Virus record (IMG/VR): IMGVR_UViG_649989947_000010
Location: 1 to 47,812 of that record
Strand: one strand, 5' to 3'
Length of the DNA: 47,812 bases
From: a virus
Lineage: Duplodnaviria; Heunggongvirae; Uroviricota; Caudoviricetes
The notes beneath the pieces are model-generated. The model worked only from the letters and a program-made list of their open reading frames with translations, made no database searches and was not told the origin of the DNA. Position 1 is the stretch's first letter. Every line of letters begins with the position of its first letter. Shown one piece after another: positions 6,367-6,955 of the stretch. The translations under genes and the position numbers were made by a program.

Positions 6367-6618
6367 TTAGTTACCGCTGATAGCGCGGTTGTAATCATTA
6401 ACGTTGCGATTCTTCCTGTTAATCCCCATCAGCATCGTTTCTGTATCGAGGATATACGCTGGCAGATCATCAAAATATTCACTGCTAAACTCTGGCATCC
6501 TGCACATAAATGCACTTTTTGGGGCAGGGTGGTTAACCTTTGTCGGCGTCGGCGTTAAATTCGCTGATCGACTCCCGGAGCAACCGCTGAGTGTCAGCAG
6601 GAATACGCTGGCGAACAT
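6367..6618 (-). CDS. Lipoprotein (lipobox LTLSGC, Pro/Thr-rich); possible o-spanin
   Basis: Internal start MFASVFLLTLSGCSG at 6618; overlaps the end of the upstream membrane coiled-coil gene in another frame. Confidence 0.5.
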   Translation of the reverse strand: MFASVFLLTLSGCSGSRSANLTPTPTKVNHPAPKSAFMCRMPEFSSEYFDDLPAYILDTETMLMGINRKNRNVNDYNRAISGN

Positions 6619-6955
6619 TACCCGCCGCAACAAGTTGTTTCTGAACTTCAGCTTTTCGTTCCATTTGCCTGTCAGCATACTTGGCTTGTTCTGATTCATT
6701 TTTCACTTCCTGGCTGTGAAAATGTTGCTCTGCTTTGTTCATCGTCTCAATGGTCTGGTTAAGATCCATTATTGACTTATCACGTTCCTTAACAGCCTGA
6801 TCAAGACTGCCAATTTTCTCCATGGCTTGCTTTAGCTGATGGCGTTCCCACGCAAACCCAGCACCAACAAGTGCGCAAATCAGAACAAGAACACCAGTAG
6901 CAGCAAGTTTCTCCTTCAAAGACAAAGCTGTTTTTAATGTAGAAAAGAATGACAT
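6533..6955 (-). CDS. N-terminal transmembrane coiled-coil protein; possible i-spanin
   Basis: ATG at 6955 preceded by AGGAGG; TM segment AATGVLVLICALVGAGFAW followed by charged coiled-coil region. Confidence 0.5.
   Translation of the reverse strand: MSFFSTLKTALSLKEKLAATGVLVLICALVGAGFAWERHQLKQAMEKIGSLDQAVKERDKSIMDLNQTIETMNKAEQHFHSQEVKNESEQAKYADRQMERKAEVQKQLVAAGNVRQRIPADTQRLLRESISEFNADADKG

Follow-up and report, generated by a model that had tools for sequence, protein, structure and literature searches.

The window, the whole 47,812-nucleotide stretch of phage DNA analysed here, comes from a P1-like phage-plasmid, of which it forms the right half, and is 99.8% identical to Salmonella phage SJ46. 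Its minus strand carries an overlapping pair of genes, ppfA and mlp, which are P1 gp064 and gp063; the window and P1 are 96.9% identical over this region. A sequence-only reading had proposed a spanin-like pair at 6367-6955, and these limits are exact, running from the start codon of ppfA (6955) to the stop codon of mlp (6367). That reading gave no strand for the pair and did not recognise it as a catalogued pair of the very well-known phage P1. The features of the locus are as follows.

8076..7792, minus strand: upfC, PAAR spike tip, upstream of the pair and co-oriented (PHROG 281 at 2.5e-30)
7840 or 7783..6995, minus strand: upfB, baseplate tripod, upstream and co-oriented
6961..6966, minus strand: ppfA ribosome-binding site AGGAGG, 5 nt 5' of the ATG (sequence; the same site in SpaninDB)
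6533..6955, minus strand: ppfA coding sequence (P1 gp064 homologue), predicted i-spanin of 140 aa (open reading frame list; PHROG; overlapped i-spanin in SpaninDB)
6851..6907, minus strand: codons of the PpfA transmembrane helix, residues 17-35
6731..6847, minus strand: codons of the membrane-proximal PpfA coiled-coil, residues 37-75 (heptad periodicity; part of the AlphaFold2 helix)
6706..6711, minus strand: mlp ribosome-binding site AGGAAG, 6 nt 5' of the ATG
6599..6625, minus strand: codons of the PpfA hinge, residues 111-119, AGNVRQRIP (AlphaFold2 helix break)
6533..6699, minus strand: dual-coding region of 167 nt
6367..6699, minus strand: mlp coding sequence (P1 gp063 homologue), predicted o-spanin precursor of 110 aa (open reading frame list; PHROG; LysC homology)
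6583..6699, minus strand: Mlp signal peptide, 39 aa
6580..6591, minus strand: Mlp lipobox L37-S38-G39-C40, with the Cys40 codon TGC at 6582..6580 as predicted lipid-attachment site
6370..6582, minus strand: mature Mlp, 71 aa
6502..6504, minus strand: codon of Mlp Cys66
5963..6355, minus strand: upfA, 130 aa, downstream, 11 nt past the mlp stop codon
5935..5951, minus strand: terminator-like hairpin just 3' of upfA (consensus scan only)

The pair is already known and is catalogued as a predicted two-component spanin of P1. In the curated SpaninDB, gp064 and gp063 are entered as i-spanin and o-spanin of the overlapped class (Kongari 2018, supplement), and the starts and ribosome-binding sites recorded there are those given here. 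Both genes have been named as the P1 spanin genes, in an operon unlinked to the remaining lysis genes (Bednarek 2022); according to that source, the identification was made by bioinformatics and goes back to Summer 2007. The P1 annotation describes mlp as an 'Rz-like spanin' and ppfA as having a 'possible periplasmic function'. The overlapped i-spanin/o-spanin arrangement proposed by the sequence-only reading agrees with both publications, lysis being a predicted function in each case.

There is no substantial difference between the pair of P1 and that of the window, which comes from an SJ46-like relative and not from P1. PpfA is 99.3% identical to its P1 counterpart (a single substitution, I45M) and Mlp differs at one residue (W24L). 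The starts, the ribosome-binding sites and the 167-nt overlap are identical to those of the P1 entry (SpaninDB family 'P1', class 'overlapped'). The pair also occupies the same slot between upfB and upfA, beside repA, the order upfC-upfB-ppfA-mlp-upfA-repA being common to the window and P1. Both mlp and ppfA belong to a set of 21 genes described as extremely conserved in P1-like plasmids (PMC9603915).

Architecture of PpfA and Mlp

PpfA matches PHROG 89 'Rz-like spanin' (1.2e-25). It has a single hydrophobic segment at residues 17-35, LAATGVLVLICALVGAGFA, with a mean Kyte-Doolittle value of 2.35 over 19 residues, and the short tail that precedes it has a net charge of +2; the N-terminus is predicted to be cytoplasmic and the C-terminus periplasmic. 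The periplasmic part comprises 104 residues, of which 36% are charged (18 K/R, 19 D/E), and contains no cysteine. Across residues 37-75, L, I, V or M occupies 73% of heptad a/d positions against 7% elsewhere, a pattern matched by none of 2,000 shuffled sequences. The AlphaFold2 model (mean pLDDT 72) consists of a helix from residue 3 to 110, a break at 111-119 and a second helix at 120-137. Residues 114-118 of the break have pLDDT below 50, and G112 and P119 are nearly invariant among relatives. PpfA is in these respects built as an i-spanin: a type II protein with a single N-terminal transmembrane domain and a mostly helical, coiled-coil periplasmic domain. The one N-terminal membrane helix and the charged coiled-coil that had been described for the upstream product are both borne out.

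Mlp matches PHROG 30284 over its full length (2.6e-77) and PHROG 456 'Rz-like spanin' at 2.8e-5. Its signal peptide is unusually long at 39 residues, with a long basic n-region (7 K/R) followed by the hydrophobic core VMFASVFLLTL. Neither property is particular to the window, since six mlp loci all encode a signal of 38-39 residues with 6-8 basic ones. SpaninDB comments on the P1 o-spanin with 'Too long signal sequence' and records LipoP cleavage at position 39 without a PROSITE match (Kongari 2018). The signal ends in LTLSG directly before Cys40, which is invariant in the family, and the residue at +2 is Ser41 rather than Asp. Mlp thus carries the outer-membrane lipoprotein signal of an o-spanin, a lipobox cysteine with no Asp at +2, and the lipobox LTLSGC claimed earlier is confirmed.

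The mature protein (71 aa, 6 Pro) begins with CSGSRSANLTPTPTKVNHPAPK, and P, T and S make up 44% of its first 25 residues, which upholds the description of this N-terminus as Pro/Thr-rich. Beyond the linker, the family alignment shows the block AFMC66xMP...DDLPxYILD...INRKNxN. Cys66 is the sole periplasmic cysteine of the pair and a candidate for an intermolecular disulfide; it is invariant in all five homologues and aligns with the cysteine of 'LCPMP' in P2 LysC. At least one periplasmic cysteine for a homotypic disulfide occurs in 507 of 528 catalogued two-component spanins (Kongari 2018), and in this pair it is Mlp Cys66 that provides it. A single-sequence AlphaFold2 model gives the mature part of Mlp at low confidence, with only a hint of a C-terminal helix. 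The combined periplasmic length of the two proteins, 104 + 71 = 175 residues, equals the SpaninDB value.

Two reading frames and their conservation

The start of mlp lies inside the 3' end of ppfA, in the +1 frame relative to it, and the gene runs 166 nt past the ppfA stop codon, as had been described in outline from the sequence; overlap in the +1 frame is what is expected of an o-spanin gene. The 167 shared nucleotides encode PpfA residues 86-140 in one frame and, in the other, the Mlp signal peptide with approximately the first 16 residues of the mature protein. The mlp ribosome-binding site itself falls within PpfA codons, around the invariant Q82-E83. In six of six loci the mlp ATG retains AGGAAG or AGGAGG 6-8 nt upstream and stays in the +1 frame, with 164-179 nt shared between the genes; AGGAGG or GGGAGG before ppfA is likewise kept in all six. 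Even where PpfA identity falls to 31%, the loci preserve the ribosome-binding site and ATG of mlp, its frame, the lipobox and Cys66, and the two genes are always found together in relatives. The alternative mlp starts (ATG at Met8, ATG at Met28, TTG at 6633 and TTG at 6630) were rejected; all lack a ribosome-binding site, and they are not kept in relatives.

Purifying selection acts on the non-overlapped part of both genes. In three relatives at ~68% nucleotide identity, the 166 nt that belong to mlp only show pN of 0.12-0.18 against pS of 0.77-0.87, and the part that belongs to ppfA only shows omega of 0.14-0.25. Inside the overlap, omega in the ppfA frame is 0.12-0.22 and most changes in the mlp frame are non-synonymous. 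This last observation would suit an mlp that is an untranslated chance open frame inside and beyond ppfA, as would the behaviour of gene callers, which often miss mlp or call just a stub of 43-52 aa. The strong selection on the non-overlapped 166 nt, the 38 alignment columns that are invariant over five Mlp homologues (the lipobox cysteine and Cys66 among them), the conserved ribosome-binding site and ATG, and the match to P2 LysC described below all speak against such a chance frame, which is extremely improbable and is effectively refuted by the selection, the invariant columns and the start signals. The o-spanin gene is truncated or absent in several deposited P1-like genomes, including those of SJ46 and JK004 and metagenomic contigs, so its correct recognition improves annotation.

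Relationship to the spanins of P2, lambda and T4

Neither PpfA nor Mlp exceeded a curated cutoff in Pfam and NCBIfam scans. The best NCBIfam matches, both below cutoff, were to P2 LysB for PpfA (19 against 92.75 bits) and to P2 LysC for Mlp (14.7 against 27 bits), the P2 families being TIGR03495 and NF038368. Direct comparison supports remote homology to the P2 o-spanin LysC for Mlp, and for Mlp only: BLASTP gives 37% identity over 68 aa (E 1e-7), and hhalign of the Mlp family profile against LysC gives a probability of 90.9% (E 1.1e-6). This sequence relationship would tie the pair to the spanin of a canonical lysis cassette. PpfA has no significant similarity to P2 LysB or lambda Rz in pairwise BLASTP or in hhalign profile comparison.

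The P2 and P1-like pairs are alike in scale (LysB/LysC of 141 and 96 aa with a 146-nt overlap; PpfA/Mlp of 140 and 110 aa with 167 nt), and LysC and Mlp share the lipobox, the Pro/Thr linker and the motif C-x-M-P. They differ in that approximately 20 residues, by count, precede the likely lipobox cysteine of LysC, whereas the Mlp signal peptide has 39. They differ also in position: holin Y, endolysin K and lysA immediately precede lysB and lysC in P2, whereas ppfA and mlp are unlinked to the other lysis genes.

With lambda the likeness is one of layout. Rz, as predicted for PpfA, sits in the inner membrane and carries a periplasmic coiled-coil, hinge and second helix; Rz1, as predicted for Mlp, is a small lipoprotein of the outer membrane whose gene lies in the +1 frame, and both pairs have a periplasmic cysteine available for a homodimer disulfide. 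Mature Rz1 has ~40 aa and is 25% Pro. Rz1 lies wholly within Rz, whereas mlp extends 166 nt beyond ppfA, and Rz has two periplasmic cysteines where PpfA has none. The Pfam families Phage_lysis and Rz1 did not match either protein even at E <=10, and hhalign probabilities against the lambda Rz and Rz1 families were 1% and 5%. Homology of Mlp to Rz1 was rejected, as hhalign aligned the lipobox only; a local resemblance of PpfA to Rz, 'AKY...AAG..R.RI', was noted and is not taken as evidence.

The separated spanin of T4, PseT.3/PseT.2, can be likened to the pair in where its cysteines lie: its i-spanin lacks periplasmic cysteines, which are confined to the o-spanin as in PpfA/Mlp. The T4 genes do not overlap, and PseT.2 has two essential cysteines against one in Mlp. 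In T4, too, the spanin genes stand apart from those for holin and endolysin. The o-spanin of T4 exceeds Rz1 in size, and a C-terminal helix is predicted for it (Kongari 2018).

These comparisons bear on whether the two proteins belong together at all. Mlp could be a stand-alone prophage lipoprotein of the Bor/Cor type, acting in serum resistance or exclusion, with PpfA unrelated and the overlap a product of genome compaction. Such a reading would fit the original P1 annotation of mlp, which was just 'membrane lipoprotein precursor', and the lack of a statistical link between PpfA and Rz or LysB. It sits poorly with a +1 overlap of 164-179 nt and an mlp site in invariant PpfA codons that persist down to 31% PpfA identity, with the constant co-occurrence of the two genes, with the match to LysC and with the small mature Mlp, whose Pro/Thr-rich linker is typical of o-spanins. 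We regard a stand-alone lipoprotein as very unlikely.

PpfA itself has a narrow distribution. A tblastn search of 50,697 phage records found matches only in P1-like phages and Cronobacter phage JK004, and a search of 5.8 billion proteins found only P1-like plasmids, at identities of at least 59%. A HMMER profile search of 1.84 billion representatives returned 33 hits, including three distant full-length relatives. One of these, P0077, is encoded on another P1-like element of 94 kb at the same syntenic position; another, P0085, was not found in viral contigs. None of these searches found a PpfA relative in a canonical lysis cassette.

A predicted spanin distant from the other lysis genes

On the P1 map the lysis genes occur as lyz-lydD-lydE (20.0-20.9 kb) and lydC-lydA-lydB (30.4-31.5 kb), with ppfA/mlp found at 63.4-63.9 kb, so that the pair is ~32 kb from lydA/lydB and ~42 kb from lyz. 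SJ46 has the same dispersed layout. The pair therefore lies outside the lysis cassette (a place inside it is usual for spanins, not obligatory), and the earlier remark that it stands away from any obvious cassette is correct. A scan for lipoboxes found no other outer-membrane lipoprotein candidate in the window or in P1 1-59 kb, and no such candidate beside the lysis genes in SJ46 8-57 kb. The annotations of P1 and SJ46 show just lyz-lydD-lydE and lydC-lydA-lydB as lysis genes. The scan and the annotations together reveal no second spanin pair in P1 or SJ46, so the outcome that the sequence-only reading had named as refuting it, which needed a separate pair in the lysis cassette, did not arise.

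The genes around the pair belong to the virion and to the plasmid. upfB and ppfA are separated by 39 nt, and ppfA and mlp are tightly packed with upfC and upfB, apparently in the same operon, in a unit that adjoins the plasmid origin (oriR/repA). Downstream, upfA is replaced or absent in some relatives, and the hairpin at 5935..5951 is likely the end of the transcription unit. The Pfam PAAR model matches UpfC weakly (1.1e-5; 26.0 bits, slightly short of the 27-bit cutoff), and cryo-EM has placed UpfC and UpfB in the P1 baseplate (PMC12810830). Since the adjacent upstream genes encode virion baseplate proteins, we infer that the pair would be expressed in late lytic growth. The Lpa-dependent late-promoter motif derived from P1's seven annotated late promoters (AAGTGACTT-N4-TANNNT) had no match upstream of upfC, upfB or ppfA. 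The P1 annotation predicts sigma-70 promoters alone upstream of the ppfA unit; our own sigma-70 consensus scan of the region was uninformative.

Knock-down data are available for both genes. By CRISPRi, efficiencies of plating were 1.3 and 1.2 for ppfA and 0.24 and 0.19 for mlp, and both were scored non-essential on plates with 5 mM Ca2+ and 5 mM Mg2+. The corresponding values for lambda Rz in that study were 5e-4 and 0.15, one per guide. Spanins are often dispensable under laboratory conditions (Bednarek 2022), and plaque-proficient knock-downs neither prove nor exclude a spanin function.

These observations are the ground on which another role would be argued. The two proteins might form an envelope-spanning complex that does not act in lysis, serving superinfection exclusion or lysogen envelope remodelling, or aiding tail-tip penetration, and expressed from sigma-70 promoters with the tail-tip genes. 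The shared unit with upfC and upfB beside oriR/repA and far from the lysis genes, the prediction of sigma-70 promoters without a late motif, the absence of a plaque defect on Mg2+/Ca2+ plates and the confinement of the PpfA family to P1-like elements would all be in keeping with it. The counter-evidence is that (i) Mlp is a supported remote homologue of an o-spanin from the P2 lysis cassette; (ii) every sequence hallmark of two-component spanins is present in PpfA/Mlp; (iii) neither protein is among the virion proteins identified in the P1 cryo-EM study (PMC12810830); (iv) a non-lysis role would leave P1 without a function for outer-membrane disruption; and (v) spanins are often dispensable in the laboratory. 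On this balance we consider a non-lysis role unlikely.

We favour, with a probability of roughly 0.8, the reading that ppfA and mlp encode a predicted two-component spanin of the P1-like phage-plasmid in the overlapped arrangement. Weighing against it are the plaque-proficient knock-downs, the missing late-promoter motif, the lack of significant similarity of PpfA to Rz or LysB, the Pfam and NCBIfam scores below cutoff and the unusual length of the Mlp signal peptide. The proposed action of the spanin follows the anatomy of the pair and the paradigms of lambda Rz/Rz1 and P2 LysB/LysC. PpfA would be anchored in the inner membrane by its one N-terminal helix, and its ~104-residue helical, partly coiled-coil domain would span into the periplasm. 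Mlp would be exported, lipidated at Cys40, cut by signal peptidase II and, because Ser and not Asp follows Cys40, directed by the Lol system to the outer membrane's inner leaflet. The two would bind through their C-terminal parts to form a periplasmic bridge through the peptidoglycan mesh, probably stabilised by a homodimer disulfide at Mlp Cys66. While the wall is intact the complex would be inert. Once the peptidoglycan has been degraded by the holins LydA and LydD and the SAR endolysin Lyz, whose genes lie elsewhere in the genome, the complexes would be set free; on collapsing they would fuse inner with outer membrane, and the final obstacle to phage release would be gone.

As a discovery the pair carries little weight, and its value is mainly practical. 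The plaque-proficient knock-downs, together with a late-promoter motif that is missing upstream, leave a small and tractable question in a model phage. P1-type phages may not depend on ppfA/mlp to disrupt the outer membrane in ordinary conditions, in which case the pair could be a spanin-derived envelope bridge with other regulation or another role, for instance one expressed in the lysogen that serves exclusion or the envelope; we think this quite unlikely. The marks cited for a bridge of altered role are the conserved basic signal peptide of 38-39 residues in Mlp and an apparent co-transcription with upfC and upfB from promoters that would not depend on Lpa.

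The predicted spanin pair of P1-type phages

The overlapping genes ppfA and mlp are an already known, bioinformatically catalogued, predicted spanin pair of P1-type phages. Window positions 6000-7900 share 99.8% identity with Salmonella phage SJ46 (the closest relative); the figure is 99.1% for several P1 isolates and 96.9% for the P1 reference. The remainder of the window matches the right half of P1-like genomes (major head gene 23, parB through pacA/pacB, c1). In the P1 reference the two genes lie between upfB and upfA, adjoining oriR/repA. There mlp is P1_gp063 ('Rz-like spanin; membrane lipoprotein precursor') and ppfA is P1_gp064 ('possible periplasmic function').

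Start 6955, minus strand: ppfA, 140 aa; AGGAGG 5 nt before the start
Start 6699, stop 6367, minus strand: mlp, 110 aa, +1 frame relative to ppfA

The sequence-only reading placed a spanin-like pair at 6367-6955, which are exactly the mlp stop and the ppfA start. It described the upstream product as a charged coiled-coil behind one N-terminal transmembrane helix, and this holds. The only hydrophobic stretch of PpfA spans residues 17-35 (mean hydropathy 2.35) and is preceded by a tail of net charge +2; the periplasmic part, 104 residues long and free of cysteine, is 36% charged. Within residues 37-75, L/I/V/M occupy 73% of heptad a/d positions versus 7% elsewhere, a pattern that none of 2000 shuffled sequences equalled. 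AlphaFold2 (15-sequence alignment, mean pLDDT 72) modelled residues 3-110 as one long helix and 120-137 as a short one, with low confidence in the break between them (111-119). The lipoprotein gene does begin within the 3' end of ppfA in another frame, overlapping it by 167 nt and running 166 nt beyond its stop. The expected lipobox (L-S-G-C40, then Ser) and Pro/Thr-rich mature N-terminus are both present in Mlp, together with one additional cysteine, C66.

P1 (NC_005856) appears under class 'ovl' in the Kongari et al. 2018 supplement (PMC6139136). Its i-spanin is given as gp064, with 104 residues in the periplasm and no cysteine among them; its o-spanin is given as gp063, with 71 residues when mature, a single Cys and a LipoP cleavage site at position 39. 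Both are assigned to families named 'P1'. The ribosome-binding sites listed there are those read from the window, and the listing upholds the proposed i-spanin/o-spanin arrangement as a predicted pair. Bednarek 2022 (PMC9025707) names ppfA and mlp as the spanin genes of P1, in an operon unlinked to its other lysis genes, and, with reference to Summer et al. 2007, treats them as recognised by their predicted features. Its Introduction labels ppfA the o-spanin and mlp the i-spanin; the sequences and the curated database of Kongari et al. (SpaninDB) give the reverse. Since the pair appears in both sources, the sequence-only reading re-derives a catalogued prediction. The analysis makes these small additions: (i) selection evidence for both frames; (ii) a conserved long basic Mlp signal peptide and a conserved ribosome-binding site embedded in PpfA codons; (iii) detectable Mlp-LysC homology and a PpfA family confined to P1-like elements; (iv) the absence, in the searches made, of both a second spanin candidate and a late-promoter motif.

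Constraint on the two frames

Three relatives sharing ~68% of their nucleotides with the window served for comparison: Cronobacter phage JK004 and one contig each from a Salmonella plasmid and from Klebsiella aerogenes. Omega was 0.14-0.25 in the ppfA-only part; the mlp-only part gave pN 0.12-0.18 and pS 0.77-0.87, the latter saturated. In the overlap the ppfA frame is conserved (omega 0.12-0.22) and mlp-frame changes are mostly non-synonymous. This is expected, because the stretch encodes the linker and signal peptide of Mlp, in which constraint falls only on general properties. On these patterns of substitution, both frames are judged to be real genes.

Conservation was followed across six loci, one of them a UViG with just 31% PpfA identity. 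All six keep the +1 frame, an overlap of 164-179 nt, AGGAAG or AGGAGG 6-8 nt upstream of the mlp ATG, a signal peptide of 38-39 residues (6-8 of them basic), and invariant lipobox Cys and Cys66.

6706-6711, minus strand: mlp ribosome-binding site, within the PpfA codons around invariant Q82-E83 in all six loci

Q82-E83 are thus doubly constrained, as protein and as translation signal. SpaninDB (PMC6139136) flags the P1 Mlp signal as 'too long'. The conservation of its length among relatives shows it to be a family trait, not an annotation error. Alternative downstream starts (Met8, Met28, two TTG codons) were rejected, as they are not conserved across relatives.

In relatives the o-spanin gene is mis-annotated, either as a 43-52 aa C-terminal stub without signal peptide or left uncalled; the full 109-110 aa overlapping ORF and its lipobox are intact in each.

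L002 (SJ46 segment) 3368-3499: mis-annotated o-spanin
L005 (JK004) 4458-4592: mis-annotated o-spanin
L008 (Salmonella relative) 6431-6589: mis-annotated o-spanin
L010 (Klebsiella aerogenes relative) 6424-6977: mis-annotated o-spanin

Kinship with P2 LysC and the search for a second pair

PHROG scans placed PpfA in 'Rz-like spanin' PHROG 89 (1.2e-25) and Mlp in 'Rz-like spanin' families PHROG 30284 (2.6e-77) and PHROG 456 (2.8e-5); neither protein had a Pfam match. In NCBIfam, PpfA matched P2 LysB best (19 bits) and Mlp matched P2 LysC best (14.7 bits), both far under cutoff. Direct comparison of Mlp with LysC (37% identity over 68 residues, E 1e-7) and a family-profile match (90.9% probability, E 1.1e-6), which takes in the C-x-M-P motif around Cys66, confirm Mlp at sequence level as a remote homologue. 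P2 lysB/lysC, almost equal to ppfA/mlp in sizes and overlap, directly follow holin Y, endolysin K and lysA, and the homology therefore ties Mlp to the spanin of a classical lysis cassette. PpfA showed no statistical link to LysB or Rz. Its family is very small (33 matches among 1.84 billion representatives), and every full-length member with recoverable context lies at the same position on a P1-like element of ~90-97 kb.

A separate pair in the lysis cassette, together with no lysis phenotype for ppfA/mlp, was named in advance as telling against the assignment. No spanin-like gene adjoins the P1 endolysin operon (lyz-lydD-lydE) or holin locus (lydC-lydA-lydB), and SJ46 has the same layout. Six-frame lipobox scans covered the window, P1 1-59 kb and SJ46 8-57 kb. 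The only convincing lipoproteins in the window were Mlp and Plp.

13418-14245, plus strand: Plp, 275 aa, SPFH/Band 7 domain (Pfam 9.7e-31)

The Asp that follows its lipid-attachment Cys predicts an inner-membrane location for Plp, which is not spanin-like. Three further window ORFs passed the scan and were weak, with mature parts of 30-32 aa or an acidic 45-aa 'signal'. The P1 scan returned no lipoprotein candidate; the SJ46 scan returned one unrelated match, where P1 has its sim region.

L013 (SJ46 segment) 10644-11165, SJ46 record 18643-19164, outside the window: 173-aa lipoprotein, signal MILMSKKYTLCALVVSAILLSG|C

Taken with the lysis-locus layouts, these scans leave ppfA/mlp as the sole spanin candidate by sequence. 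The SJ46 gene is annotated 'DNA methyltransferase', which looks wrong; together with the 179-aa 'membrane protein' gene that follows, it occupies the position of P1 simABC.

Expression context and knock-down

6995-8076, minus strand: upfC (PAAR) and upfB, directly upstream of ppfA

The genes upfC, upfB, ppfA, mlp and upfA all point the same way; gaps of 11-39 nt separate upfB, ppfA/mlp and upfA, and upfA is followed by a terminator-like hairpin. Long of 'unknown protein function', UpfC and UpfB were placed on the P1 baseplate by 2026 cryo-EM as a PAAR-like spike tip and a novel 'tripod' (PMC12810830). The unit is therefore probably expressed while virions are being made, as would suit a lysis function late in infection. 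A motif derived from seven annotated P1 late promoters (AAGTGACTT-N4-TANNNT) gave no Lpa-type match upstream of the upfC-upfA unit. P1 annotation predicts solely sigma-70 promoters, inside upfB, and the upstream intergenic region holds the C1 operator of the divergent dmt promoter.

A genome-wide CRISPRi screen (PMC10695390) found efficiencies of plating of 1.3 and 1.2 for ppfA and 0.24 and 0.19 for mlp; both were scored non-essential, as were upfC and upfB, on top agar with 5 mM CaCl2 and 5 mM MgSO4. For lambda Rz the two guides used in that screen yielded 5e-4 and 0.15. The ppfA/mlp plating result is the main reason for retaining a role other than lysis as a minor alternative. Knock-down may have been incomplete. 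Spanins are also reported to be non-essential in shaken cultures (PMC9025707). The CRISPRi result weakens essentiality rather than the spanin assignment.

What follows mlp varies among relatives. P1, SJ46 and JK004 have upfA there (window 5963-6355, minus strand), whose place is taken in the Salmonella relative (L008 6600-6953) by a 117-aa Phage_gp49_66 protein; in phage JL22 a blaCTX-M-55 insertion interrupts upfA (PMC9603915). The Klebsiella aerogenes relative has no gene called after mlp, and the gap (L010 6424-6977) barely exceeds mlp.

Window 22917-25397 has no counterpart in P1-like alignments. It carries a 402-aa ORF (23025-24233), which we take to be an IS10-type transposase, then a second near-identical ORF (24208-25383). 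A direct repeat (23097-23396 and 24247-24546, 99% identical, 1150-nt spacing) points to an internal tandem duplication or an assembly artefact.
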